Assembly: GCA_944358735.1 (NCBI GenBank)
Contig: CALVRT010000079.1
Location: 1 to 43,900, forward strand
Reading direction: 5' to 3'
Source of the DNA: an uncultured Bacilli bacterium
Lineage (GTDB): Bacteria > Bacillota_I > Bacilli_A > RF39 > UBA660
DNA length: 43,900 nt
Under the pieces are notes generated by a model. It saw only the letters and a program-made list of their open reading frames with translations. It was not told where the DNA came from and made no database searches. The translations under genes and the position numbers were made by a program. This document shows positions 936 to 26,837 of the stretch, piece after piece (position 1 is the first letter of the stretch; each line of letters begins with the position of its first letter).

Positions 936-954
936 AAGGTGATTAAATCACCTT
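936..954 (-). terminator. rpsB-tsf intergenic hairpin (possible attenuator)
   Basis: Inverted repeat AAGGTGATT / AATCACCTT overlaps the rpsB stop codon. T-rich sequence follows on the minus strand. Confidence 0.4.
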
Positions 955-2002
955 AATTTAACGCTTCAATAAGTTCTGCTTTTTTCATAGTTGAATAGCC
1001 TTTAACATTTTTTTCTTTAGCTAGTTCTCGAAGTTCAGCAACAGTTTTTGTAGATAAATCTACAGTGGCTTTTTTAGTTTCTTTTTTTGCTTCTTTAACC
1101 TCGGCTTTTTCTTCTTTAGCTTCAGTTTTTACTTCTTTTTGAACTTTTTCTTCTTTTTTAGGCTTTTCTACTTTTTTAGCTTCTTTTTTATCAGATGATT
1201 TACTATTCTTTTTTTCAAAACGTGGTTTTTTATCGTCTTTTTTCTTAACGGTTTCTAAAGCCTTTTTCATAATATCTTCTTTATCGTCTTTACGATTACC
1301 ATTAGTATAGTCAACAATTTGACCGCCATTAGCTTCAACAATAGCATTAGCCATAACACCAACGATTAATTTAACGGCTCTAATTGCATCATCATTACCA
1401 GGAATAACATAATCAACCATATCTGGGTCACAGTTAGTGTCAACAATACCAAATACTGGAATATTAAGTCTACGTGCTTCTCTAATTGCGATTTCTTCTT
1501 TTGAAGGGTCAACAATAAATAAAGCAGCTGGTAATTTATGCATATTTCTAATACCAGAAAGTAAGTTATTTAATTTAGCATATTCTTTTTTAATACCAAT
1601 AACTTCTTTTTTAGGTAATACTTCAAATAAACCGTCTTTTTCCATCTTTTCGATTTCTTCTAAACGTCTAACTCTTCTTCTAATTGTTCTGAAGTTAGTT
1701 AATGTACCACCTAACCATCTAGTATTTACATAGAATGAATCACTTCTTAAGGCTTCTTCTTTAATAGCTTCACTAGCTTGTTTTCTAGTTCCCACGAATA
1801 AAACTTTACCACCATTAGCGGCAATTTCTTTTAAAGCAGCATAAGCTTCTTCGATTTTTTTAGCTGTTTTTTGTAAATCAATAATATAAATATCATCTCT
1901 TGCGGTAAAAATATATTCTCTCATTTTGGGATTCCATCTTTTTGTTTGATGGCCGAAATGAACACCCGCTTCTAGTAAGTAGTTCATAGATACTACTGCC
2001 AT
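953..2002 (-). CDS. rpsB: 30S ribosomal protein S2 with about 100-aa Lys/Glu-rich C-terminal extension
   Basis: The ORF track extends to 2071. I place the start at ATG 2002 ([25 protein letters not shown]), which has AGGAGG 8 nt upstream and matches the conserved S2 N-terminus. Confidence 0.93.
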
Positions 2003-2150
2003 TTTATCTTCCTCCTTTTCGTTATAACCTCTAAATCTTTCAAAATTATGCCACCTATCGGCACTAGGCATAAAAATTCAGATTTATGTAATTTAAAAAA
2101 GCCAATAATATTATATCATAATTATATGAATGTGCAAGTAAAAAATTGTA

Positions 2151-2312: not shown

Positions 2313-5306
2313 TTATATTGTTAATCGATATGGATTATTTTGCGAGCCATCACCTCCAGTGATTTTGACTGAAGATGATAATGTCACTACTGGTCTAGGA
2401 CGATAAGATTCATAATCTGCAACATTTAAATGAACATCTCCACTATCTCCCATAATTCTATAAACATATCCTGTATCACCTGACCGTTCTGCAGGTGTTA
2501 GAGTCCAAAAATCATATGCATCGTTAGGTGTAGTCATATAATTACTGTCAAGTTCAGAATAACAACTACTATTAGAATCATAAGCATACAACCCAGTGCA
2601 TAAAGGATTTGTGCTTGCTCTGACATATTCAGTTACATCTATTACACCAACTTTCCCTTTCCATTTTACCGAACTGGCTTGTTCGATATCCGTTTTTAAA
2701 GTTTGGGAGGAATCACTTTTAACCATTCCCACTTTAAAAATTCCTTCTGTTAACATTGACTTTGATTCAGCGCTAATATAAGTATTATAATATGTTGTAT
2801 TTAAATACGTATTTAAATATGCTTCTTCGGTAGGCAATCCATAACTATAACTATCATCCACACTTCTTGGTAAAGAAGTTATCGGCTGCATATTCACATT
2901 ATATAATGTACTTTTACTTCCCCAAATATTACATCCATACTCATTTGACGAACAATATCCTGTTCGTAAATACCTACCGCTTTCTGTATCATAAGGCTCT
3001 AAAAAATATATACTTGATGGGGCCATTATTTTAATGGTGTTCGTTTCAGTGTTTATGCTAATTATTTGCCATAAATTATTACTAAATCTAACATAATTAT
3101 TAGGATTACCACCTCGGTATATATATAAATCTTCTTCATAAGCATCTTTATATAACCCATCACCTATTTCAACAACTGGCAGATTAATGCCACCCATATT
3201 TACGCCAACTTCAATTGAATAACTAGCACTAGCTTCATTAGTTCCATCACTAACTCTGGCTACTAATGTACCACTTTCAGTAAATGAAACTTGTTGATTT
3301 TGCGTCGCTGTTTGCCAGCTTCCACCATCTTTTTGATATTCATATATTAAATCTTCGCCTTCAGGATATGTGATAGTTACAGTTTTACCATTATCGATTT
3401 CTACCTCACTAAAGGTTGGCTTATCTAACAAAGAAGTACTAATTCCATTTCCTAATTGAAATGGATTATCACTTGTACCTTCTCCACTTATAATTTTTAC
3501 ATAACTTTTTAAATACAAAACAGGTCTTACACCATAAGAACTTATAGCTGTGGTTCCAGCTCCAATTGCTCCTGTTGTAGTATTGATTCCCCACACATTT
3601 GTCCTACTTCCACCACGGCCATTTATAAATCTGGGACTATTACTAGAACTATCAAAAAGCCAATTATAATTTTGAGTATTGTTATAACAAGAACTATTAC
3701 TACTATAATCATTAGCTCTTGTACAGTTAGAATTAGTACTGGCTTTTACATAATCCGTAACATTTAAAAGCCCTATTTGACCTAACCATTTATACTTTTC
3801 TTCGCTTAACATATCGGTTTGCATATTGTCACTGCTACTAGCAGTTATTGTTCCAACATTAAAATAATGATTATCTATTTGCTGCTGGGCTAAAGAAGTT
3901 AGACTAGCATAATATTCTTCATTTAAATACTCATTCATACTAGAAACTTTATCTGGTAAAGCATAAGTTGTACTACTTGAATAAGTATCGCTTATTGAAC
4001 TTACTTGATTTTCATTAATATCGTAAGTAGTTATATTACTTCCCCAAGCATTACACCCATTCGAAGGACTATTACAATAATCACTACTACGATTATTAGC
4101 CACATCAAATACATGACTAGATAAAGCAGAACTTCTAATTATTTTCATAGTTCCATCATTTTCTAATGAAATTATTTGCCATAATTCATTATTAAACCTT
4201 ACATAATTATTTGGACTTGCTCCCTTATAAATATATCTTCCTTCTTCTGTAGTATCTTCATATAAACCGTCACCGCTAATAACAACATTATCTGTTAACT
4301 TTATTGAATCATCTAGTTCTGCTTCAGTAGTTAAATCTACTCCATTAGTCACTCTAACACTTATATCATAACCAGTTGACTGTGTTAACCCTGTAAATGT
4401 ATAACTATTACTAGTTCCATTATCTATCCAATCACCGTCATTTATTTTAAATTCATATTTGCTTATTCCACTTTCCAGGTCACTTGCTGTAACTACTACT
4501 GTTATAGAATTTGTTGTACTACTGGTGCTTACATTCTCAATAACTGGAGGAGTGTCATCAGGCTTTTTAAATATCGCATACAATGTTACATCTTCTGTGC
4601 CCATAGTAAGTTCTGTTAAACCTTCTTCTGCCTGACTATTTGTATTCCAGCCCACAAAGTCATAGCCTTCTCTTTCAGCTGTATAACTTAAATCTATACT
4701 TTCACCTTCTGATATATAAGCATTTTCCGCAGTAGTACTTTCTCCACCATTAGTAGTATAGTCATAGGTTACTAAATGGTCGGTAGTTGGTTCGATTGTT
4801 CCCCCGCTATTTTGAGTAAATTCTAAATCTACTGTACTTTCACCACTTGTTCCTGATGCATCTCCTTCATAATTAGAATTATACTCGATTCTTACTTTTA
4901 ATGTAGCTGTTGTTTCTTTATATAAAGTTTGACCTTTAGTAAGTCCTGTACTCGTTATTTTAACCGCTTCATTATTAGAATTAGTTATACCAAGTGTTTC
5001 TAGTTTAGCATCAAATGTCCCTGCATTTTCAACAATTATACTGTATTCTACATAATCGCCTTTTTCATATAAATTGGCCTCTAAATCAGCAGTTAAATCA
5101 GTATAATTATTTTTTACGTTTTCACCAGTTCCTCCGGTATCGGTCACATCAGCACTTATTATTTTAATATTCCAATCACTACTTATTTCACTTGTTCCAG
5201 TTATATTTAAACTAGTTTGAAAAGCGGCATAACCAACGCCCATTAAACAAATTATTCCTACTAATATCAGAATAATAATTTTATTGCGTCTCTTTTCTCT
5301 ATACAT
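2313..5306 (-). CDS. secreted modular surface/adhesin-like protein (997 aa)
   Basis: N-terminus has a basic n-region, a hydrophobic core and GYA/AF (SPase I-like). A beta-sandwich-like segment follows with KGDYVEYSIIVENAG (tentatively TasA/camelysin-like). Next come a Listeria-Bacteroides repeat (YDFVGWNT...VTLYAIF) and an FN3-like module. There are two roughly 280-aa repeats starting GDGLY..D....YIY.G..PNNYVRF...LWQIIS. Each has four Cys and ends G.G....NP(F/Y). SD GGAGGG lies upstream. Confidence 0.85.
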   Translation of the reverse strand: MYREKRRNKIIILILVGIICLMGVGYAAFQTSLNITGTSEISSDWNIKIISADVTDTGGTGENVKNNYTDLTADLEANLYEKGDYVEYSIIVENAGTFDAKLETLGITNSNNEAVKITSTGLTKGQTLYKETTATLKVRIEYNSNYEGDASGTSGESTVDLEFTQNSGGTIEPTTDHLVTYDYTTNGGESTTAENAYISEGESIDLSYTAEREGYDFVGWNTNSQAEEGLTELTMGTEDVTLYAIFKKPDDTPPVIENVSTSSTTNSITVVVTASDLESGISKYEFKINDGDWIDNGTSNSYTFTGLTQSTGYDISVRVTNGVDLTTEAELDDSIKLTDNVVISGDGLYEDTTEEGRYIYKGASPNNYVRFNNELWQIISLENDGTMKIIRSSALSSHVFDVANNRSSDYCNSPSNGCNAWGSNITTYDINENQVSSISDTYSSSTTYALPDKVSSMNEYLNEEYYASLTSLAQQQIDNHYFNVGTITASSSDNMQTDMLSEEKYKWLGQIGLLNVTDYVKASTNSNCTRANDYSSNSSCYNNTQNYNWLFDSSSNSPRFINGRGGSRTNVWGINTTTGAIGAGTTAISSYGVRPVLYLKSYVKIISGEGTSDNPFQLGNGISTSLLDKPTFSEVEIDNGKTVTITYPEGEDLIYEYQKDGGSWQTATQNQQVSFTESGTLVARVSDGTNEASASYSIEVGVNMGGINLPVVEIGDGLYKDAYEEDLYIYRGGNPNNYVRFSNNLWQIISINTETNTIKIMAPSSIYFLEPYDTESGRYLRTGYCSSNEYGCNIWGSKSTLYNVNMQPITSLPRSVDDSYSYGLPTEEAYLNTYLNTTYYNTYISAESKSMLTEGIFKVGMVKSDSSQTLKTDIEQASSVKWKGKVGVIDVTEYVRASTNPLCTGLYAYDSNSSCYSELDSNYMTTPNDAYDFWTLTPAERSGDTGYVYRIMGDSGDVHLNVADYESYRPRPVVTLSSSVKITGGDGSQNNPYRLTI

Positions 5307-5796: not shown

Positions 5797-5846
5797 AAAA
5801 ACTAATTCTTTGTGTAATAAAAATTACATTTGGGAATTAGTTTTTT
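5795..5846. terminator. bidirectional terminator between XRE gene and yqeY
   Basis: Outer stem AAACTAATTC (5799..5808) / GAATTAGTTT (5834..5843) with an inner TGTAAT/ATTACA stem. A/T runs lie on both sides. Confidence 0.55.
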
Positions 5847-6282
5847 AGTTTAGACGTTCTTTAATAATTGAGCTGGCTTTGCCCATATCATATTTACCTT
5901 TTAATTTTGGAGAAACTTCTTTCATTATTTTTCCCATGTCCCTAGGACTTTCTGGCTTTACAAGTTCAAAAGCCTCATCAATTATTTTACTTGCTTCTTC
6001 ATCAGTTAATTGTTCTGGTAAATAAGCTTTTAAAATTTCAATTTCCGCATTAGTTTTTTGAATTAAATCTTCCCGATTTCCTTTTTCAAATTCCTTAATA
6101 CTATCATTACGTGATTTAATTTCTTTTGTCACAACATTAATTACTTCATCATCCGTAAGTTCATGTTTTTTATTTAATTCTTCCATTTGCATAGACCCTT
6201 TAAGCATTCTAATTACTGATAACTTTTCTTTATCTTGGGCTTTCATTGCTTCTTTTAAATCATTTAATATTCTTTCTCTCAC
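5845..6282 (-). CDS. yqeY: GatB/YqeY domain protein
   Basis: RILNDLKEAMKAQDK is the typical YqeY N-terminus. I prefer GTG 6282 (AAAGGA upstream). The ORF-track start at 6312 lies inside the rpsU terminator-like hairpin. The rpsU-yqeY pairing is conserved in Bacillota. Confidence 0.85.
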   Translation of the reverse strand: MRERILNDLKEAMKAQDKEKLSVIRMLKGSMQMEELNKKHELTDDEVINVVTKEIKSRNDSIKEFEKGNREDLIQKTNAEIEILKAYLPEQLTDEEASKIIDEAFELVKPESPRDMGKIMKEVSPKLKGKYDMGKASSIIKERLN

Positions 6283-6314
6283 ATTATCATATCCTTTCAA
6301 AAAAGGCAGCACCT

Positions 6315-6521
6315 TTATGCTGCTCTATCGTATCGTCTTGACATTCTTTCTCGCCGGCGGGTATTTTTTATACCTTGTTCTTTTTTCTGTTTTCTCCGAA
6401 CGCCCGGTTTTGTATAATATTCTTTCTCACGAAGTTTTGCGCGGGAGCCATCTTTATCGTTTTTTAAACTTCTAAGTGCCATATCAATGTTACCATTGCG
6501 TACTACTACTTTAGTGCCCAT
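6315..6521 (-). CDS. rpsU: 30S ribosomal protein S21
   Basis: MGTKVVVRNGNIDMALRSLK plus a basic C-terminus. GGGAGG lies 7 nt upstream of ATG 6521. The ORF-track start at 6545 has no SD. Confidence 0.9.
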   Translation of the reverse strand: MGTKVVVRNGNIDMALRSLKNDKDGSRAKLREKEYYTKPGVRRKQKKEQGIKNTRRRERMSRRYDRAA

Positions 6522-6596
6522 AAACATACCTCCCTTCTTGTACAATTAATTATAACACTTTTTCCTTTATTTTTCAAACTTTTTTGTAATAAATAT

Positions 6597-6619
6597 GAAA
6601 AAAGCGAGAATTTCTCGCT
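6597..6619 (-). terminator. rho-independent terminator after the second leader-peptide gene
   Basis: 7-bp stem AGCGAGA/TCTCGCT (6603..6609 with 6613..6619), 3-nt loop, then a T-run on the minus strand. Confidence 0.65.
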
Positions 6620-6781
6620 TTATAAAGTACAGGTGGTTTTCGTAATTGCCCGTCTAATAGCTGAACCAACAGCTTGTCCAAGTTCAAATAAAACACTAAT
6701 ACCACGGGCTATCGCATTAATAAGTGAAGCTGTAACCGCCCCACCACTTATCATTTTAAGTTCATTATCCGTTAACTTCAT
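6620..6781 (-). CDS. double-glycine-leader peptide 2 (53 aa, bacteriocin-like)
   Basis: My translation: MKLTDNELKMISGG/AVTASLINAIARGISVLFELGQAVGSAIRRAITKTTCTL. Its ATG overlaps the peptide 1 stop (ATGA). It is absent from the ORF track because it is under 60 aa. Confidence 0.75.
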   Translation of the reverse strand: MKLTDNELKMISGGAVTASLINAIARGISVLFELGQAVGSAIRRAITKTTCTL

Positions 6782-6918
6782 TCGTTACACTTAAGCGGCC
6801 GTAAAAAGCCGTCAACAACTCCAATGATAAAAGTTGCGATACCACCTATAATGGCGCCAAGACTAAATCCACTAGCACTGCCACCAATAACAGTTAATAA
6901 TTCATTATCTGTTAACAT
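6778..6918 (-). CDS. double-glycine-leader peptide 1 (46 aa, bacteriocin-like)
   Basis: My translation: MLTDNELLTVIGG/SASGFSLGAIIGGIATFIIGVVDGFLRPLKCNE. AAGGAGGA lies 5 nt upstream. The ATG is 1 nt after the ABC exporter stop codon. Confidence 0.8.
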   Translation of the reverse strand: MLTDNELLTVIGGSASGFSLGAIIGGIATFIIGVVDGFLRPLKCNE

Positions 6919-6919
6919 T

Positions 6920-8971
6920 TTATTCCTCCTTTATAACATTAGTCTTAATTTGGCCGTTAGCTATTTCGATAAACCGGTCAAAAAGGTCTAAATTATCTAT
7001 CCGGTGAGAAACAACAATAATTGTTTTATCCTGATAAGCTTTTAAAAGATTTTTAACTATTCGACGCTCCATACTAACATCAACCTCACTAAAAACTTCA
7101 TCAATTAAAATGATTTCAAAGCCATGTAAAGCTCTAGCTAAAGCAATTCGTGCACGCTGCCCACCAGATAAATTAAAACCATTTTCTTCAATCAGGGCAT
7201 AATAACCCAAACTATTGTTACCAGCAATCTCGTTAACTAAAGTCAAATTAGCTGAATATTGATAATTATTATCACATAAAGTTAAATTTTCTAATAAAGT
7301 TCCGGTAAACAAAACCTCATTTTGTCCAACATAAACAATACTACTATCAATAGTTTGTTTATCATAATCATTAATATCGATACCATCAATTTTAACTTTA
7401 TCCTTTTCTACTTCATAAAATTTTTTAATTATTTTTAAAAGTGTACTTTTGCCACTACCGCTAGGACCGTAAATCATTATTTTTTCACCCTTATTAATCG
7501 TTAAACATATATCTCTTAATATTAAATGAACATCATCTATACTAAAGTTTAAATGATTAATTACAATATTTCCTTTTATTTTTTTGGTGATAAAATTAAT
7601 AGGCTTTTGATAATAGGTTAAATCTAAAATTCTTATTATCGCTTCTCTCGCCTCTTTTAAATCTAAATCCAAATCAATTAGCCTTCTAAAAGAACTAGAA
7701 AAAGCAAAAAATAAGATAATATAAGTCAAAAATTTTCCAATTGTTAGCACCTGATTACTAATTAAATTAATACCAACAACAAATAGTAAAAACTGACTAA
7801 AAACATTAATTAATTCTTTAAATAAGTAAAGTTTATTATAATAAATATCTAATTTATAAGTAGAAGTAACTTTCTTTTGATACTTATTACAAAAAGAAGT
7901 TATGATTTTATTTTCAATACCTAGCCCCTTTATTGTCTCAAATCCTCTAATCGCTTCCGTCATATATGAATTTATTTCTGCTTTCTGAAAATTTTCAAAA
8001 AAAACTAAATCATTTATCCGTTTTCGGATTAATAAAAAGAATAAAGTATATAATACTAAAGAAGTACTTGTAACAACAAATAAAATAGGATTTAAGAAAA
8101 ACAAAACAAAGGATAATAAAATCAATAATGGAGCGTCAATTAAAAAAATTACTAAACATTTACTAATCATGTTTTTAACAAAGCCTAAATCATTAATTCG
8201 ACTAATTACTTCACCAGCGGTCTTACCTTGATAATAATTATATGGAAGGTTTATTATGTCAGCAAATATCTTTAAAGTTAGTTCTTCATCAATTTTTTTA
8301 TTTAATTTTATCAGTATATATCCTTGCCATAACTCAATTAATATTTTACTAATCATTAAAAACAAAAATAGAGAAAAAAGTTTAGATAGGTTTTGATGAT
8401 TTATGTTATCTAATACCAGTTGTAAGAAAAAAGCAGTCAGAATAGAAAGAACAGTAACAAATAATGATAGAACAAAAATCAAAATTAGATATTTTTTATT
8501 AGAGATAACCATACTTTTAAAAAAATTATAAATACTTACATGTTTAAATCTTGGTGGTGGTTTTATCGGCCGCATTACGATAATCACACCACTATAGATG
8601 TTTGAAAATTCTGACAACTTCATTTTCATGATTTTTTTAGCTGGGTCAGCGATTAACAAATAATCATTATAAACTTCATAAACAACAATAAAATGCTTAT
8701 ATGATTTATTTATTAGCACATTAGCGATAAAAGGTGTAGAGTATTTTGATAAATCTTCTATTTCTACTTTATAACCATTAGCTTCAAAGTTGAGCTGGTT
8801 TAGGACTTTAACTAAATGATAAGCAGTAGTTCCATTTCGTGTTGTTTTAAGCATATCATTTAAGTGGTTTAAACCGATGTGGCCCCCATAATATTTAATA
8901 ATCATCGATAAAGAAGCTGCGGCACAGTCTTGAAGACCGGACTGCCTAACAAAAGGATATTTTTTTGTCAT
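6920..8971 (-). CDS. peptide-cleaving/exporting ABC transporter with N-terminal C39 peptidase domain
   Basis: C39 motifs QDCAAASLSMIIKYYGG, HFIVVYEV and IADP. Six-TM core. Walker A GPSGSGKST, signature LSGGQRARIALARAL, Walker B ILIDEV, H-loop VVSHR. Confidence 0.9.
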   Translation of the reverse strand: MTKKYPFVRQSGLQDCAAASLSMIIKYYGGHIGLNHLNDMLKTTRNGTTAYHLVKVLNQLNFEANGYKVEIEDLSKYSTPFIANVLINKSYKHFIVVYEVYNDYLLIADPAKKIMKMKLSEFSNIYSGVIIVMRPIKPPPRFKHVSIYNFFKSMVISNKKYLILIFVLSLFVTVLSILTAFFLQLVLDNINHQNLSKLFSLFLFLMISKILIELWQGYILIKLNKKIDEELTLKIFADIINLPYNYYQGKTAGEVISRINDLGFVKNMISKCLVIFLIDAPLLILLSFVLFFLNPILFVVTSTSLVLYTLFFLLIRKRINDLVFFENFQKAEINSYMTEAIRGFETIKGLGIENKIITSFCNKYQKKVTSTYKLDIYYNKLYLFKELINVFSQFLLFVVGINLISNQVLTIGKFLTYIILFFAFSSSFRRLIDLDLDLKEAREAIIRILDLTYYQKPINFITKKIKGNIVINHLNFSIDDVHLILRDICLTINKGEKIMIYGPSGSGKSTLLKIIKKFYEVEKDKVKIDGIDINDYDKQTIDSSIVYVGQNEVLFTGTLLENLTLCDNNYQYSANLTLVNEIAGNNSLGYYALIEENGFNLSGGQRARIALARALHGFEIILIDEVFSEVDVSMERRIVKNLLKAYQDKTIIVVSHRIDNLDLFDRFIEIANGQIKTNVIKEE

Positions 8972-9101
8972 AATTCACCCTCCTATTATATATCATAGGA
9001 GTTTTTTTTAAAAAATCCTGCAAGAAATCGAAAAAAAATGAAAAAATTTTAAATTTCTTCAAAATGAGATTTTAGAAATTTAATTTAAAGTACAAAAAAA
9101 G

Positions 9102-9623
9102 TTATTTTTGGAAAATTTTAATGTTTTTTCCGCCATAACTTTTATTTTTTATTAAATTATAAGGACAAATTATATTTTCTTTCTCATATTCACAAACTAA
9201 AAGACCATTATCTTTTAATAAATTATTTTTTATAATTAGTTCTATCGCTTTAGAAATTAAATTATCATCATAAGGAGGGTCTAAAAAAATAATATCAAAA
9301 TTTTTATTACATTTTTTTAAATAATTTATATAATCATCTTTTACTATAGTTATATCTTCTTTTATATTTTGAATGTTGTGTTTTAATGTTTTTATAACAA
9401 TAGGATTATTGTCAACCAACACTAATTCTTTTGCTCCATTACTAATAGCTTCTAAACCGAGTGAACCTGACCCTGCAAACAGGTCTAAACAGCTACTTTC
9501 ATCCAAATAAGGATTAAGCATAGCGAATAACGATTCTTTGATTCTTCCCATTGTCGGTCTTGTCCCTTTTATGTTATAACCATCTAATTTTTTTCCTTTA
9601 TATTTACCACTTATGATTTGCAT
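9102..9623 (-). CDS. rsmD: 16S rRNA (guanine966-N2)-methyltransferase
   Basis: 173 aa. GTRPTMGRIKESLF, the SAM motif DLFAGSGSLGLEA, and DPPY. Confidence 0.88.
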   Translation of the reverse strand: MQIISGKYKGKKLDGYNIKGTRPTMGRIKESLFAMLNPYLDESSCLDLFAGSGSLGLEAISNGAKELVLVDNNPIVIKTLKHNIQNIKEDITIVKDDYINYLKKCNKNFDIIFLDPPYDDNLISKAIELIIKNNLLKDNGLLVCEYEKENIICPYNLIKNKSYGGKNIKIFQK

Positions 9624-9816: not shown

Positions 9817-11328
9817 CTAATTTCCTTGTTTTAATATTATCATAGCAATAGTTGTAATCCCCTCACCAGCATTTGGCATTATTGTTGAAATAATAAAATC
9901 CATCGCAAATAAAGTAATTAAAATCGTACAAATAACTATTTTAACTAAATAAGGAATTTTTCGGTAAAGATTATCTAAAAGTGGAGCAATTAAATAAATA
10001 ACCGCACACCCTCCAAGACCAAATAAAATTAAAACTTCTAAACATATTCGGCCATCTATATTCATAAAGAAACCACTATAATCCCACCATTTTAAATGAT
10101 AAACAAATTCCAAATAAGCACTAACAAAATATTCAATAAAACCGCCAATCATTAATGATAAAAGGAAAACAAATAACGGTTTTTCTCTTATTTTATAAAG
10201 TAATATTAATATAGCGATCCCCCCGACTCCATAAATTGGAAGCCAAGGTCCAGTAAGCGTCCCTTTATTGACAAAATCACCAGTTCTAAATAAGTTTAAA
10301 GCAACTTCCCAGCACCACCCCATTATCGCAATTGTAAAGAAAATTAACACTAAACTTAAAACAGAATATTCCCGATTATAATCAATTTTTAACCATCTAC
10401 GGATATTTTTCTTAACTAAACCTTCAGGATAAATATCACCAGTTTCCATTAACTTCTTATCATTAAATAAATTACTTAAACTTTCATCATTAGCAAGTAA
10501 ATTTTCCCTTAAAGTTAAATATAAATTACCATAAGTCATTTGATAATATGGTTCAGTTATCAGTAAATTAGAAATATTTAAAGTAAGTAAACCAAGGATT
10601 TTCCAACCCAAAAATGATAAATCCAATTTAAAACAATTCCATTTTTGACCGTCCATCATTTGCCTTGATAATTTAAAGGCTTCTTTTTTACTTATACCAG
10701 GATTTTCAGCCAAAATATAAGGTATCATTAAATAAGAATAATATTTAATTACCCCACCAACAATCGTTAAACACCAAAGTAAAATATATAACTGTCTTAA
10801 AAACATTATTTTAACAACATTTAAAGTTTTTTTAACTCGGATAACAAAGAAAATTTTATCGATTGGGGTATTTTTATAATTAACTTTTTCAATAAAGAAA
10901 CGGTTGCGGCCAACTTCTATGGTACTACTGATAAATAACCAGAAAAAGAAACCAACAATAAGACCGGTAAAAATTATAATACCACTAGCTATTTGATTAT
11001 AAAAAAGTATTTGATTTAACCCATTTAACGTGCCAATAAAGAAAGAATTAGCCGAAGCAATATTATTAGCAAAAATAGCTAATATTCCTTTTGAGGCATT
11101 TGACGCATCAACATATGATTCAAAGCCGTTCAAAATGCTATCTAAAATATGAAAATTATTAATATAATTGGTAACTGTATTTTCTGCTTCCGTCCGAATA
11201 TTAAAAGATACTAAATCATAACCTTCATTAATTAAAACAAATGCAATAAAAGCGACAATAACTGCCCTAAAATAATTATGTTTTAAGTTTTTTCTCGCTT
11301 TTTGTTTTAATTTTTTTCTTTCAATCAT
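9817..11328 (-). CDS. polytopic membrane protein: DUF975-like N-half fused to CmpB/DUF1113-like C-half
   Basis: The N-terminus MIERKKLKQKARKNLKHNYFRAV is DUF975-like. The C-terminal LTGPWLPIYGVGG ... WWDYSGFFMNIDGRICLE matches the putative ABC-transporter type IV family pattern. Confidence 0.75.
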   Translation of the reverse strand: MIERKKLKQKARKNLKHNYFRAVIVAFIAFVLINEGYDLVSFNIRTEAENTVTNYINNFHILDSILNGFESYVDASNASKGILAIFANNIASANSFFIGTLNGLNQILFYNQIASGIIIFTGLIVGFFFWLFISSTIEVGRNRFFIEKVNYKNTPIDKIFFVIRVKKTLNVVKIMFLRQLYILLWCLTIVGGVIKYYSYLMIPYILAENPGISKKEAFKLSRQMMDGQKWNCFKLDLSFLGWKILGLLTLNISNLLITEPYYQMTYGNLYLTLRENLLANDESLSNLFNDKKLMETGDIYPEGLVKKNIRRWLKIDYNREYSVLSLVLIFFTIAIMGWCWEVALNLFRTGDFVNKGTLTGPWLPIYGVGGIAILILLYKIREKPLFVFLLSLMIGGFIEYFVSAYLEFVYHLKWWDYSGFFMNIDGRICLEVLILFGLGGCAVIYLIAPLLDNLYRKIPYLVKIVICTILITLFAMDFIISTIMPNAGEGITTIAMIILKQGN

Positions 11329-11388
11329 CGCAACCTACTTCCTATTCTCTTTTAAATTATAACATATTTCCTCAATTTTGACGAGTAC

Positions 11389-11417
11389 TTGACAAGCGAA
11401 AATAAATTCGCTATAAT
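11389..11417 (+). promoter_or_regulatory. sigma-A type promoter of the argS leader
   Basis: TTGACA (11389..11394), 17-nt spacer, TATAAT (11412..11417). Confidence 0.55.
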
Positions 11418-11439
11418 CTTAAATAGTTTATTAAACAAC

Positions 11440-11630
11440 GACGAAGGAATAGTAATAAAATCCCTTATCTATAGTGAGTCAGTGGTTAGTGGAAACTGAA
11501 GATAATATTTTATGAACGCGCCTTCCTAGTTTAAGCGTATTTCTGCGTTAAAGAACAAAGTGCATAGAACTTCTATGAAGTAAGGTGGTACCGCGAAAAT
11601 TCGTCCTTATTTTATAGAAGTTTTTATATT
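11440..11630 (+). promoter_or_regulatory. T-box riboswitch leader (Arg)
   Basis: Stem I base GAAGG/CCTTC with AATAGTA and helix ATAAAAT/ATTTTAT. Specifier loop GAA-CGC-G (CGC at 11517..11519). T-box motif AAGGTGGTACCGCG (11582..11595). Terminator AACTTCTAT (11568..11576) / ATAGAAGTT (11614..11622) plus a T-run. Confidence 0.85.
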
Positions 11631-11644
11631 TTAAGGAGGAGATT

Positions 11645-13312
11645 ATGGAAAAATTATTTAATGAAGTATTTAAAAAATTAGGTTATGATGTAAATGTTAA
11701 AATTGTTAAATCAAATAATGCTGATTTTCAGTGTGATGATTTATTTAAACTAGCTAAAACTTATCATAAAGCACCAATGCAAATTGGCGAAGAATTTGCA
11801 AAAGAAATCAAAGAAATAGACAATTTTAGCGACTATTTTAACGATGTCTTTATTTCTAAACCAGGATTTATCAATATTAATGTTAGTGACAAATATATTT
11901 GTAATAATTTAAAACAGTTGATGGAAAAACCTATTTTAGGAAGCACTAAAGAAGATAGTACTATTGTCATTGACTATGGTGGACCTAATGTTGCTAAACC
12001 ACTCCATGTTGGGCACTTAAGAGCAGCCATTATCGGCCAAGCCATTTACAATATTTTAAAATTTAAAGGTAATAACGTAATTGGAGACGTTCATTTAGGT
12101 GATATTGGTCTGCAAATTGGGCAAGTTATTTACGGAATTATGGAAGACTTTCCAAATACCGATTTCAAAGATATCGAGCTTGATTTAGACTATTTAAATG
12201 AAGCTTATCCAAGAATGAGTAAATTATGTAAAGAAAATGAAGACATAAAAAACAAGTGCGCTAAAATTACCAAAGACCTGCAAGATGGTGACCCTAATTA
12301 TCACATCTTATGGGAAAAGATTAGAAAAGTTTCAATTGATGACATTAGAAACATTTACAACTATTTAAATGTTCACTTTGACTATTGGTATGGTGAAAGT
12401 GATTCTCATAAAGAATTTCCAGAAATGATGAAATTTTTAGAAAAACAAGGTGTTGTTAAAGATGATGATGGTGCGAAAATTATTGAAGTTAAAGAGGATG
12501 ATGATAAATTTGATATGCCACCTTGTCTAATTCAAAAAAGTGATGGTGCTTATCTTTATGCAACTAGTGATTTAGGAACAATTTGGCAAAGAGCAAGAGA
12601 TTTTCATCCTGACAATATTATTTATGTTGTCGACGGCAGACAAGGTATGTACTTCAAGCAAATCTTTAGAGCTGTTAAGAAAAGCCATATGTATGATGGC
12701 ATCCTTGAACACTATGGTTTTGGCACAGTTAATGGTCCTGATAACAAACCATTTAAAACCAGAGCTGGTGGTAGTTTAAAATTAGTTGATTTAATTAAAG
12801 AAGTTAAGGATGAATTTACTAATATGCGTGAAGATAATAAAAGTATGGACTCCAAAGATATTGATAAAATTGTTGTCTCTATTTTAAAGTTTGCCGACTT
12901 ACAAAACGATTTAGAACGTAATTATATCTTTGATATTAAAAAATTCAGTGAAGTTAATGGTAAAACAGGTCCTTATATTTTATATACTTACTTAAGAATT
13001 AATAAAATTATCAATGAAAATAATGGTAATTTATCTGATAAAATTTATAACGAAAGCGACAGAGCTTTAAGACTTAAATTATTAGAAGTAAGTAATGTTA
13101 TTAATACAGCAGCTAAAGAAAGAAAACCGCATCATATTGCTACTTATTTATATGATTTATCAGTTTTAGCTAATAACTTCTATCAAAATAATCGCCTAGC
13201 TGATTTAGAAGGTCAAAATAAAGATGACTTTGAAATCGTTTTAAACTTCAATAACAAAGTAATTAAAACTTTACTTGACTTATTAGGTATTGAAATTCCT
13301 AAAAAAATGTAA
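11645..13312 (+). CDS. argS: arginine--tRNA ligase
   Basis: 555 aa. HIGH-type motif AKPLHVGHLR, class I ArgRS architecture, SD AAGGAGGAG upstream. Confidence 0.95.
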   Translation: MEKLFNEVFKKLGYDVNVKIVKSNNADFQCDDLFKLAKTYHKAPMQIGEEFAKEIKEIDNFSDYFNDVFISKPGFININVSDKYICNNLKQLMEKPILGSTKEDSTIVIDYGGPNVAKPLHVGHLRAAIIGQAIYNILKFKGNNVIGDVHLGDIGLQIGQVIYGIMEDFPNTDFKDIELDLDYLNEAYPRMSKLCKENEDIKNKCAKITKDLQDGDPNYHILWEKIRKVSIDDIRNIYNYLNVHFDYWYGESDSHKEFPEMMKFLEKQGVVKDDDGAKIIEVKEDDDKFDMPPCLIQKSDGAYLYATSDLGTIWQRARDFHPDNIIYVVDGRQGMYFKQIFRAVKKSHMYDGILEHYGFGTVNGPDNKPFKTRAGGSLKLVDLIKEVKDEFTNMREDNKSMDSKDIDKIVVSILKFADLQNDLERNYIFDIKKFSEVNGKTGPYILYTYLRINKIINENNGNLSDKIYNESDRALRLKLLEVSNVINTAAKERKPHHIATYLYDLSVLANNFYQNNRLADLEGQNKDDFEIVLNFNNKVIKTLLDLLGIEIPKKM

Positions 13313-24077: not shown

Positions 24078-25412
24078 CTAACACTGACCTGTAGTAACTT
24101 CCGTGATTTTGCTACCATCAAATATATTAGCGTCCTCACTAACTTGCCACTTATCAGATACTTTAACAATATCTAAATTTTTCATATCACTAAAAATACC
24201 ATCTATTTTTTTAACTTTGTTTGTATCAAAAGAACATAAATCAAGAAGAGGAAGAGCCGTTCCATTAAACATATTTTCCATATTAATGACTTTACGTGTA
24301 TCAAAGCCATCGATATTTAATGTTTCAAGACCAGAGCACCCCGCAAACATCGAGTTCATAGTTGTTACATTTTCGGTAATAAAATTACTTAAATCTAAAT
24401 TACTTAAACCACTGCCAGCAAACATATAACTCATATCAGTTACTTTAGTAGTATTTAAACCACTTAAATCTAACGTTTCACTTGTTAAACTGGTACAATT
24501 TTGAAACATTTTACTAGTATTAGTAACTTTAGTTAATATTAAATCTTTTATTGTTTTTAATTTTGAGCAACCTTGAAACATGCCTTCCGCATTTATTACT
24601 AAATTAGTGTTAAGATTGTTAAAATCAACCGTCTCAAGGGCTGTAAACCCCGCAAACATATAAGATGAATTATAATTAGCGGTTACTCCACCATTACCAC
24701 CAATATGTAAAGTCGTATTATCGGTAATCCAATATAAAACACTTTTATCACCTTTTTCGGAAATATCTATAGCGTTATCAGGTGCACTAGTTACGTCATC
24801 TTCAAAAACAACACTAGTAATACTGCTTTTATCAGCATGAAAATCTTCATTAGAACTAGAACCCCAGCTTTTCATTATCCCACCACTTATTGGTGTAGCT
24901 ACATCATCATAAGTAATTGTTGCATAAGTACCATCTTCAAATTGACCGATTAACCGGTTATTACTCTCCTGTTTTTCTAATCTATTCAAAAAAGTTTTAT
25001 AACTAGTAGTAAATATGTTAGTATCACTGGTATCAATAGTTTTAGGGTCATCTACCGCATATATTAAAATTAAAGTTTTAAGGTTCATAGCATTAGCTAA
25101 ATCATCACAACCAGAAAGATTTACAGCATCAGCTATATTCGCATTACATGTACCATCTTGAAAAATCACCAAATAAGTACTATCACCTATTTTAGCTTGT
25201 AAAGCATTTGGGCTAGTTTCATTAGCTATAATATATTCTTTCATGGTATTTAAGTTATAAATACCTTCTACTGTATTATAATCATAACTATCTTCATAAC
25301 TATTAAAAAGGTTTTTAAATTGAACAAATAAAAAGACTAAAACTGTTAATACAAAAGTCGTAACGACTAATGATTCTACTAATAAAAACCCCTTATTATT
25401 CATTTTTTTCAT
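24078..25412 (-). CDS. prepilin-leader protein fused to BspA/DUF285-type leucine-rich repeats (444 aa)
   Basis: MKKMNNKG/FLLVESLVVTTFVLTVLVFLF is a prepilin motif. The C-terminal half has about 25-aa repeats MF.GC..L..L.L..F.T..V..M..MF. SD AAGGAGA upstream. Confidence 0.8.
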   Translation of the reverse strand: MKKMNNKGFLLVESLVVTTFVLTVLVFLFVQFKNLFNSYEDSYDYNTVEGIYNLNTMKEYIIANETSPNALQAKIGDSTYLVIFQDGTCNANIADAVNLSGCDDLANAMNLKTLILIYAVDDPKTIDTSDTNIFTTSYKTFLNRLEKQESNNRLIGQFEDGTYATITYDDVATPISGGIMKSWGSSSNEDFHADKSSITSVVFEDDVTSAPDNAIDISEKGDKSVLYWITDNTTLHIGGNGGVTANYNSSYMFAGFTALETVDFNNLNTNLVINAEGMFQGCSKLKTIKDLILTKVTNTSKMFQNCTSLTSETLDLSGLNTTKVTDMSYMFAGSGLSNLDLSNFITENVTTMNSMFAGCSGLETLNIDGFDTRKVINMENMFNGTALPLLDLCSFDTNKVKKIDGIFSDMKNLDIVKVSDKWQVSEDANIFDGSKITEVTTGQC

Positions 25413-25514: not shown

Positions 25515-26837
25515 ATGATAAGAACTTTTGACTTTCAAAAAATGCCAATAGTTGATGTTGTAAATGAGATTTTAGTTGATGCTTCAAAACGAGGCGCGAG
25601 TGATATTCACTTTGACCCTAGGGAAGGACATATGATAATTCGTATTAGAGTTGATGGACAACTAATGGATTATGCGGATGTACCAAACGAAATACGTGAT
25701 TATCTAATTACTCGTATTAAAACAATATCAAAAATGAATATTACTGAAAGCCGGTTACCTCAAGATGGTTCAATAAAAGGAACTTTACAAGGTATTAACC
25801 TCGACCTTCGTGTATCATCACTACCGGTTAACAATGGTGAAAAAGTCGTTATTCGTATTTTGGATTACTCAATGAGTTTGGCTGGTCTCGAGCAACTAGA
25901 CTTTAGTCAAAAAAATTACAAAAAATTAATTGAAATGATTAACGTTCCTAATGGAATTATTTTAGTTACCGGAGCAACTGGTACTGGTAAATCAACTACG
26001 GTTTACTCTATTTTACAATATTTAAATAAAACTGAAACAAATATTATCACTGTTGAAGACCCAATTGAAATGGATATTGAAGGTATTAATCAAGTTCAAA
26101 CTAACAGTAAAATTGGATTAGATTTTGCCACGGCTTTAAGGTCTATTTTAAGACAAGACCCAAATATCATTATGATTGGGGAAATCCGTGACTCGGAAAC
26201 AGCTAAAATTGCCGTTAGAGCATCTATTACTGGGCATCTTGTTCTATCAACAGTCCATACTAATAATTCATTAAACACTATTGAAAGATTAATTGATATG
26301 GAAGTTCAAAAATATTTACTTGCTAGTGCTTTAGAAGGCGTTATCTCACAAAAATTAGCTAGAAGATTATGTCCTAAATGTAAAAGAAAAAGACCAACTA
26401 CTGATTATGAAAGAACAATATTTAAATCTGTTTTAAATAAAGATGTTGAAGAAATATATGATAATGAAGGTTGTGAAGAATGTAATGATGGCTTCCACGG
26501 TCGAATTGCCATTCAAGAAGTTTTAAGAATTAATCAAAGAATTAGAGATGCTTTAAGTGATAATGTTAGTAAAGAAGAACTTCGAAAACTTGTTTATAGT
26601 TCAGATGTTACTACCCTTCTTCAAGATGGGCTTGAAAAAGTTGTCAATGGTGATACAACCTTTGGTGAAATTCTTAAATTAATTGAACTTGATGATTCTG
26701 AAAATATTAGTGATAACGATGGCTTTGATTTAAAACAAGCTGTTAATATGTCAATTGAAGCTAATAACGCTAGAATGAATAATTATAAACCTGATACTAG
26801 TAGTATAAATAATAATCCTAATATTGAAGTATTATAA
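25515..26837 (+). CDS. GspE/PilB/ComGA-family type IV filament assembly ATPase
   Basis: Walker A GATGTGKSTT, IGEIRD, STVHTN, and tetracysteine CPKC...CEEC. 440 aa, with no long N-terminal domain. Confidence 0.9.
   Translation: MIRTFDFQKMPIVDVVNEILVDASKRGASDIHFDPREGHMIIRIRVDGQLMDYADVPNEIRDYLITRIKTISKMNITESRLPQDGSIKGTLQGINLDLRVSSLPVNNGEKVVIRILDYSMSLAGLEQLDFSQKNYKKLIEMINVPNGIILVTGATGTGKSTTVYSILQYLNKTETNIITVEDPIEMDIEGINQVQTNSKIGLDFATALRSILRQDPNIIMIGEIRDSETAKIAVRASITGHLVLSTVHTNNSLNTIERLIDMEVQKYLLASALEGVISQKLARRLCPKCKRKRPTTDYERTIFKSVLNKDVEEIYDNEGCEECNDGFHGRIAIQEVLRINQRIRDALSDNVSKEELRKLVYSSDVTTLLQDGLEKVVNGDTTFGEILKLIELDDSENISDNDGFDLKQAVNMSIEANNARMNNYKPDTSSINNNPNIEVL

Follow-up and report, generated by a model that had tools for sequence, protein, structure and literature searches.

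The window considered here, the whole 43,900-nt stretch of contig CALVRT010000079.1 from an uncultured Bacilli bacterium (assembly GCA_944358735.1), carries a gene for a C39-peptidase ATP-binding cassette (ABC) exporter which is followed by two very short genes, here named pepA and pepB. Both are real genes under purifying selection, and the function suggested for their products, to which we assign a probability of about 0.6, is that of a class IIb-like two-peptide membrane toxin acting as an exported helix-helix pair. The promoter, the exporter gene, pepA, pepB and the terminator form a self-contained transcription unit, the parts of which are as follows.

8989..9025, minus strand: promoter region, with an AGGATTT box at 9019-9013, a 14-nt spacer and CTATGATATA at 8998-8989
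8979..8984, minus strand: Shine-Dalgarno sequence AGGAGG of the exporter gene, which is the right arm of the inverted repeat CTCCTAT-N8-ATAGGAG
8971..6920, minus strand: C39-peptidase ABC exporter gene, 683 aa (C39 domain, residues 4-135; transmembrane domain, 162-427; ATPase, 485-626)
6930-6925, minus strand: Shine-Dalgarno sequence AGGAGG of pepA, within the last exporter codons and 6 nt before pepA
6922-6920, minus strand: exporter stop TAA, with one base between it and the pepA ATG at 6918
6918..6778, minus strand: pepA, 46-aa precursor
6918-6880, minus strand: pepA leader, MLTDNELLTVIGG
6879-6781, minus strand: mature pepA, 33 aa, hydrophobic, with G33xxxG37 and a D-G-F-L-R-P-x-K-C tail
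6781-6778, minus strand: ATGA overlap of pepA and pepB
6781..6620, minus strand: pepB, 53-aa precursor
6781-6740, minus strand: pepB leader, MKLTDNELKMISGG
6739-6623, minus strand: mature pepB, 39 aa, cationic and amphipathic, with LINA, LGxxxGSAIRR and a C-terminal Cys
6621..6601, minus strand: intrinsic terminator closing the operon, a 9-bp stem with 4 GC pairs followed by a T-run

The peptide sequences and their coordinates agree exactly, on re-reading of the DNA, with those of a preliminary description of this stretch, which had also named the pepA Shine-Dalgarno sequence, the ATGA overlap and the terminator; all three are seen at the positions above. Equivalents of the hairpin and T-run follow pepB in several related loci (L001, L003-L006, L008, L009 and L010).

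Coding potential, exporter and peptides

Conservation as coding sequence in relatives had been proposed as a check on the two short open reading frames (ORFs), and the changes observed were indeed biased towards synonymous ones. In comparison with L001, whose exporter is 79% identical to that of the window, pepB showed 18 synonymous and 0 non-synonymous changes, and pepA showed 11.5 synonymous and 2.5 non-synonymous differences. The ratio of non-synonymous to synonymous substitution rates (dN/dS) of pepB was 0-0.11 over six pairs, as low as that of yqeY; it was 0.05-0.22 for pepA and 0.13-0.34 for the exporter. The same two ORFs stand behind exporter homologs of 79%, 72% and 55% identity, the pair was found behind the exporter in 26 further loci, and the order of pepA then pepB after the exporter is kept in every locus with sequence there. 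Genetic code 4 was rejected for the window (about 30% G+C), since ORFs cover 87% of it under code 11 and TGA closes just 4 of its 44 ORFs. In two database proteins, P0134 and P0202, the pepA TGA stop (window 6778-6780) is read as Trp (…CHEWN), and one of them fuses pepA to pepB; this reading is an artefact of code-4 gene calling in Mollicutes-like contigs, the window itself using code 11.

The gene upstream of pepA had been described as a C39 exporter with intact Cys/His/Asp and ATPase motifs. Its Pfam domains (Peptidase_C39, 126.5 bits; ABC_membrane, 119.4 bits; ABC_tran, 86.4 bits; all above cut-offs) and its alignment to PCAT1 agree with this. PCAT1 (PDB 4RY2), to which the protein aligns over its full length, is the best solved relative (E 6e-86) and ComA the second best (E 8e-81). 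The catalytic Cys (QDCAAAS), His (YKHF) and Asp (IADP) as well as Walker A (GPSGSGKST), the signature (LSGGQ), Walker B (LIDE) and the H-loop all align with those of PCAT1. An N-terminal C39 domain with Cys/His/Asp, the transmembrane domain of an ABC exporter and complete ATPase motifs, i.e., the features by which a peptidase-containing ABC transporter (PCAT) is recognised, are thus all found in it. Homologs at E<=1e-20 numbered 400. The score against TIGR01193, 353.2 bits, is below the curated cut-off of 523.85, and the protein is therefore regarded as a divergent relative within the peptide cleavage/export group, outside that subfamily model.

The double-glycine leaders of both peptides, as previously proposed, fit the consensus L-12, E-8, L-7, V/I-4, G-2, G-1, with a length of 13-14 aa. 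The leader of CtA, the PCAT1 substrate (LTDEELMEMTGG), nearly equals the pepA leader (LTDNELLTVIGG). The PCAT1/CtA system of Clostridium thermocellum (PDB 4RY2, 6V9Z) therefore resembles that of the window in the exporter over its full length, in the aligned catalytic residues and in this near-identical leader. In contrast, the CtA chain is about 90 aa in the PDB entries and its cargo part is unrelated, whereas the window has two short cargo peptides. We know of no function for CtA.

Mature lengths of 33 and 39 aa with a GxxxG motif in each had been read from the sequence earlier, and the motif proved to be conserved across each family. G33xxxG37 of pepA is invariant in a five-sequence alignment; in G35xxxG39 of pepB, G35 is at least 90% conserved and G39 invariant among 81 members. 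The conserved tail of pepA reads I-G-V-x-D-G-(F/Y)-x-R-P-x-x-C, and pepB keeps L-I-N-A, L-G-x-x-x-G-S-A-I-R-R and the C-terminal Cys. Mature pepA is neutral and very hydrophobic, with a mean Kyte-Doolittle value >2 over 18-residue windows, and is predicted to be a transmembrane-like helix; mature pepB is amphipathic with a net charge of +3. In AlphaFold 2 models of moderate confidence each mature part is a single helix, the predicted helices lying at 4-13 and 18-43 in pepA and at 5-46 in pepB.

The single Cys close to each C-terminus had likewise been pointed out; it is the third residue from the end of the mature part in both window peptides and is conserved in the family. Of 159 pepB-family mature peptides, 140 have a sole Cys, which lies 0-3 residues from the C-terminus; all 22 mature peptides of pepA (22/22) also have just one, at a distance of 1-4 residues. 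A thiol-dependent function of pepA and pepB seems likely from this pattern. Since the single C-terminal Cys is so conserved, an inter-peptide disulfide between the two, which would be the simplest role for the thiols, is a reasonable idea and may be formed. The former view of two mature peptides of class IIb-like anatomy, encoded by translationally coupled genes and serving as substrates of the adjacent exporter, is supported by these features.

For the two-peptide toxin suggested above we infer the following course of cleavage, export, pairing, disulfide linkage and toxicity. The ATGA overlap would keep the output of the two precursors about equal, the C39 domain of the exporter would recognise the amphipathic leaders and cleave after Gly-Gly, and the exporter would pump mature pepA and pepB out. 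Outside the cell, the hydrophobic pepA and the cationic pepB would pair as helices via the conserved GxxxG motifs and may be linked by a disulfide between their single C-terminal cysteines. The pair could then permeabilise the membranes of sensitive, probably related, bacteria.

Family, chromosomal site and immunity

Close relatives were few in word-indexed searches, with 12 for pepB and 4 for pepA. When a pepB profile was run against 1.84 billion representative proteins, it matched 382 clusters (defined at 50% identity) at E<=1e-3, of which 101 reached E<=1e-10; almost every one is 49-57 aa long and has the same motifs. The carriers are uncultured Bacilli and Mollicutes-like bacteria, for which the record titles suggest gut, rumen and digester sources. 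Among 81 members of the pepB family, Pfam and NCBIfam models covered the leader only (PF10439 in 8 members; TIGR03949 in 19, at E<=0.01), and a family for the mature part was not found in either collection. Matches of the window peptides to class IIb models in Pfam and NCBIfam were weak and driven by the leader. The pepB of the window scores 21.7 bits against TIGR03949 (lactobin A/cerein 7B; cut-off 21.5), and the match is limited to residues 2-31, i.e., the leader plus the first 17 mature residues; pepA has no match to this model. A pepA relative, P0136, was named as lactobin A/cerein 7B-type (TIGR03949) by the Joint Genome Institute. The mature region in the TIGR03949 family is glycine-rich, unlike the LINA...LGxxxGSAIRR...C of pepB. 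A profile search of the PDB gave chance or leader matches only, and no match to the mature motifs was found in the full text of the literature. As far as sequence comparison goes, pepA and pepB are a large undescribed family of the class IIb kind, for which there is no Pfam or NCBIfam model.

The genes on either side of the unit are the following.

9102..9623, minus strand: rsmD, upstream flank outside the unit (TIGR00095, 164.5 bits, and synteny)
6545..6315, minus strand: rpsU, downstream flank, with its own sigma-A-type promoter at 6577..6549
6312..5845, minus strand: yqeY, downstream flank

The position of the unit among housekeeping genes had been called unusual, and a comparison of the rsmD-rpsU interval proposed to see whether it is an insertion. 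This interval in relatives shows a long-resident, inherited locus and no odd insertion. Among 185,579 species genomes the pepB profile matched eight loci, all from metagenome-assembled genomes of uncultured Bacilli, Mollicutes or Firmicutes, with two records labelled Muribaculaceae. Wherever the contig reaches the flank, the order is rsmD-exporter-pepA-pepB-rpsU-yqeY, at exporter identities of 34-79%, and synteny at the rsmD/rpsU site was found in at least 20 loci. In the clade of seven lineages to which the window belongs (the window clade), exporter divergence tracks that of RsmD and YqeY (Spearman rho 0.91 each; exact Mantel p 0.0012 for RsmD and 0.0004 for YqeY). Across all 14 loci the congruence of exporter and flanks was not significant (rho 0.15-0.22), probably because exporter identity saturates near 40%, and vertical descent is therefore claimed for the window clade only. 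No plasmid, phage or viral-contig copies of the peptide family were found. A recent insertion or mobile island was rejected because of the synteny, the congruence with the flanks within the clade and the lack of mobile copies. The unit is long-resident at the rsmD/rpsU site and vertically inherited within the window clade.

The module was not present at this site in all related genomes. In an unbiased sample drawn with RsmD, comprising 54 metagenomic loci with at least 1.5 kb downstream, it adjoins rsmD in 12, and the other 42 have pilin-like or other genes there. It is therefore clade-restricted and dispensable, and a universal core gene was rejected on the same count. The same three genes occur at a different site, between spoIIIAH and cca-dnaD, in L012, a spore-former of 25% G+C. 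In L004, a relative of 72% identity, about 2.3 kb (10267-12383) is inserted between pepB and rpsU and encodes a 281-aa membrane protein and a 245-aa ABC ATPase, by appearance an ABC-2-type exporter pair; the insert may have nothing to do with the unit, or may be a transporter of the immunity type that was acquired.

That the unit has no immunity or accessory gene, as stated in the preliminary description, holds for the window clade and does not hold for more distant relatives at the same site. Loci with exporters 37-43% identical to that of the window have two extra genes, at the following positions.

Gene for a protein of about 150 aa: L015:10027-10482, L017:2190-2630, L018:10060-10497, L027:8614-9075, L067:6356-6805
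pepC: L015:10771-10926, L017:2945-3112, L018:10791-10964, L026:4648-4827, L027:9377-9541, L061:7795-7941, L067:7117-7281

The first is placed between the exporter gene and pepA, where it abuts or overlaps the stop of the former, and encodes a protein of about 128-153 aa with one N-terminal membrane helix, which may be a miniature accessory protein. The second, pepC, is an ORF of 48-59 aa which overlaps the pepB stop in most of these loci. Its product has a basic N-terminus and one membrane helix followed by E-I-I-F-K-L-G-x-I-I-G-x-x-I-R-x-x-x-C, that is, the pepB core with the same Cys and without the double-glycine leader, and a pepC profile matches pepB sequences at E ~1e-3. Neither protein has a Pfam or NCBIfam family. 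By virtue of its position just after pepB and its membrane topology, pepC is a candidate immunity protein, which would mimic pepB as a decoy; immunity genes of class IIb systems sit just after the peptide genes, as pepC does behind pepB. The bare three-gene form is found in the window, its clade, L012, L022 and L031; L040 also has neither extra gene, with a 117-aa ORF behind its pepB. The window locus is better described as a minimal form of a wider five-gene module.

Inside the unit there is no immunity-like, accessory or kinase/regulator gene, and none was recognised elsewhere in the window. Its remaining ORFs of at least 100 aa, several of which have no Pfam family, include no histidine kinase, response regulator, Abi/CAAX protein or sigma factor; no small multi-pass protein was recognised in the window, and no ORF resembling pepC or the 150-aa protein was found in the window or the clade loci. 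Protection of the window clade would come from an unlinked gene or from its lacking the target.

The resemblance of pepC to pepB also bears on a different explanation, in which the peptides are not released and serve as subunits in the membrane of the producer, where pepC and the 150-aa protein of relatives would join them in a small housekeeping complex of the envelope. Such a complex would need no immunity gene, and it would agree with the core-gene-like conservation, with the fixed site among translation genes and with pepC being a membrane-anchored pepB paralog with the same Cys. However, the absence of the module next to rsmD in 42 of the 54 unbiased related loci makes it dispensable, there is no precedent for structural subunits exported by a PCAT, and the window clade keeps the pair without pepC and the 150-aa protein. 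This explanation is hardly probable.

Exported signals, suggested as an alternative in the preliminary description, fit poorly. If the peptides were pheromones sensed by an unlinked receptor, a 33-aa transmembrane-like helix such as mature pepA would be unexpected, and no pheromone is known to come as a translationally coupled pair with conserved GxxxG motifs. The mature parts of pepA and pepB are conserved, in contrast to the usual divergence of pheromones into pherotypes. No kinase or regulator was seen in any of about 27 loci, and the cognate histidine kinase/response regulator expected of a ComC/BlpC-type system was found neither in the window nor in the gene tables of the related loci. 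It is true that double-glycine leaders and C39 exporters also serve ComC/BlpC-type pheromones and that a signal would need no immunity gene, and weak matches to the ComC, EntF and VP1 pheromone models were obtained, but these matches span the leader only. The window thus shares with the ComAB/ComC and BlpAB/BlpC export systems a ComA-related exporter and the same type of leader; unlike them, its locus has no ComB-like partner, kinase or regulator, and its cargo is a hydrophobic, conserved peptide pair rather than one short, variable pheromone. A signalling role is considered very unlikely.

The closest parallel is seen in class IIb bacteriocins, the hallmarks of which are two peptides from adjacent genes, a dedicated ABC transporter and GxxxG (or AxxxA/SxxxS) motifs (Nissen-Meyer et al., PMC2850506). 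Like lactococcin G, plantaricin EF/JK and enterocin 1071, the window system has a single operon in which neighbouring genes encode two different peptides of 30-40 aa, with double-glycine leaders and a C39 ABC transporter of their own; the peptides carry GxxxG motifs and are predicted to be helical, one of them being cationic. It differs from them in its dissimilar mature sequences, in the invariant C-terminal Cys of each peptide, in the leader length of 13-14 aa, in being chromosomally fixed and long inherited, and in an operon which lacks both an LcnD/ComB-type accessory gene and an immunity gene, the terminator standing directly after pepB. Because the immunity gene expected of the class is missing and killing activity is predicted only, the system is said to work like a class IIb bacteriocin and is not filed as an established member.

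Several points weigh against a toxin of this kind. Bacteriocin loci are usually patchy, mobile and diversifying, and here the locus has been retained vertically at one site for long, with strong purifying selection on the mature peptides and an exporter that diverges faster than pepB. There is no similarity of the mature parts to any characterised bacteriocin or solved structure. Formation of disulfides outside the cell is not assured in producers that, according to the gut, rumen and digester titles of the records, are apparently anaerobic. Neither the operon nor the rest of the 43.9-kb window nor the available parts of the clade loci were found to contain an immunity gene, whereas class IIb operons always include one (PMC2850506). 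The leaders also fall a little short of the range of 15-30 aa given for the class (PMC2850506).

Promoter and regulation

In all 22 loci with sequence upstream of the exporter (22/22), including L012 at its other site, an AGGAWWT box precedes the exporter start by 46-51 nt; when the pattern AGG[AGT][ATG][AT] was scored, shuffled controls gave a mean of 1.3 and a maximum of 6 out of 22. In these loci the box is followed by a 14-nt spacer, by xTATGAT or GAATxAT and finally by the Shine-Dalgarno sequence. With the window and L004 left out of its training set, a weight matrix had its best window-wide match at 9025..8989 (score 17.2).

The box resembles the -35 element of sigma-H promoters, and the spacing is presumably equal to that of the B. 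subtilis spoVG sigma-H promoter. The Bacillus consensus is RNAGGAWWW at -35 and RNNGAATWW at -10 (PMC8510167). The -35 of the window, GCAGGATTT, fits RNAGGAWWW; at -10 the window has CTAT(GAT) and most loci have xTAT. Some results argue against sigma-H. The exact GAAT -10 after a 14-nt spacer occurs in just 4 of the 22 loci (L018, L023, L045 and L061), and the motif is absent upstream of spoVG in the relative L015, where the region is sigma-A-like. The box was not found upstream of the T2SSE (ComGA-type) gene of the window, and no sigma-factor gene is present in the window. A relaxed sigma-H pattern was rejected as support, as it is too common in AT-rich DNA. Since independent support was found neither at spoVG nor at the ComGA-type gene, control by a sigma-H-like factor is proposed tentatively, at somewhat less than even odds. 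The earlier statement that no regulator is present still stands for the locus itself, and its absence may be explained by the conserved, non-sigma-A promoter box. Control of this kind, if true, would account for the missing local regulator and would parallel the ComX-driven cibABC of pneumococcus.

Two further observations concern this region. A perfect inverted repeat, CTCCTAT-N8-ATAGGAG (8979-9001, minus strand), spans the -10-like element and the exporter Shine-Dalgarno sequence; its fold of -11.2 kcal/mol (z -1.8) is marginal in comparison with shuffles, and many relatives have a pyrimidine-rich CTC(C/T) element immediately before the -10 region. In transcripts that read through from rsmD, the repeat could hide the Shine-Dalgarno sequence. 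In L017 a gene for a 218-aa sigma-70-family factor (L017:3223-3879) directly follows the module; it matches sporulation-type sigma factors best, with every score far under the cut-off, and cannot be recognised as SigH. Its position beside the module could be a coincidence or a functional link.

In the main rival explanation, the pair is a conserved self- or kin-directed developmental effector (fratricide, cannibalism, or release of DNA at stationary phase or competence) under an alternative sigma factor, with immunity timed or encoded elsewhere. The long vertical retention, the strong purifying selection and the conserved box that is unlike sigma-A and resembles the sigma-H -35 fit this better than they fit an arms-race weapon, the absence of plasmid and phage copies agrees with it, and the ComGA-type ATPase of the window and the pilin-like genes of relatives hint at competence machinery. 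A precedent is the fratricide locus cibABC, which is driven by the alternative sigma factor ComX and includes the immunity gene cibC (PMC5295010). Pneumococcal CibABC is likewise of the two-peptide bacteriocin type with no local two-component regulator. No transporter gene is listed within cibABC (PMC5295010), which we read as the locus having none of its own. On the other hand, cibABC carries an immunity gene and the window operon, like its clade, has none; the sigma-factor control at the window locus is a sigma-H assignment by inference, and the box was missing at the T2SSE gene. Mechanistically the two explanations also overlap, as the pair would still be a membrane toxin. A developmental role is unlikely, yet worth keeping in mind. 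Its fullest form, a lineage-wide effector of a large group of uncultured low-GC Bacilli in which a disulfide-linked heterodimer would hit siblings or the own membrane, with pepC as a decoy and protection dispensed with in the window clade, is similarly improbable.

Surrounding features and significance

Other features of the window, and the starts of a gene family seen near the module in relatives, are listed below.

953-2071, minus strand: ribosomal protein S2, 372 aa, with the S2 domain at 32-246 followed by a C-terminal extension
2313-5306, minus strand: 997-aa surface-type protein with Listeria-Bacteroides repeat, fn3 and DUF6273 domains
11429-11611, plus strand: T-box leader (116.6 bits, above the gathering score), upstream of argS at 11645-13312
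24078-25412, minus strand: DUF285 ("Mycoplasma") protein
25515-26837, plus strand: ComGA/PilB-type T2SSE ATPase, adjoining the DUF285 protein
L003:1672-2172; L005:3926-4414 and 6106-6597; L008:11012-11524; L009:6031-6516: paralogous starts of about 170 aa

The extension of S2 ends in a Rho_N-type domain (338-371, E 4e-11), an unusual fusion. In several relatives, genes near the module begin with paralogs of the N-terminal ~170 aa of the 997-aa protein, which points to a variable family of surface proteins around this site. Many of the RsmD-sampled relatives have prepilin-like genes directly after rsmD, where the window has the exporter module; together with the T2SSE ATPase they are a hint that the lineage has machinery for competence or a pseudopilus.

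Almost nothing is known about competition among these uncultured Bacilli and Mollicutes-like bacteria. The large family of peptide pairs defined here, with its 382 clusters, is new to both Pfam and NCBIfam. The mature peptides, being short and unmodified, can be synthesised directly. Among unmodified two-peptide bacteriocins, the pair with its two invariant cysteines might form a covalent heterodimer. As a membrane-anchored paralog of a putative toxin peptide, pepC may be an immunity protein of the decoy type, which would be a new principle if true, and the window clade as a whole keeps its putative toxin genes under strong selection without a linked immunity gene. Finally, the promoter that is unlike sigma-A could tie production of the pair to a global developmental switch rather than to a local quorum-sensing pair.

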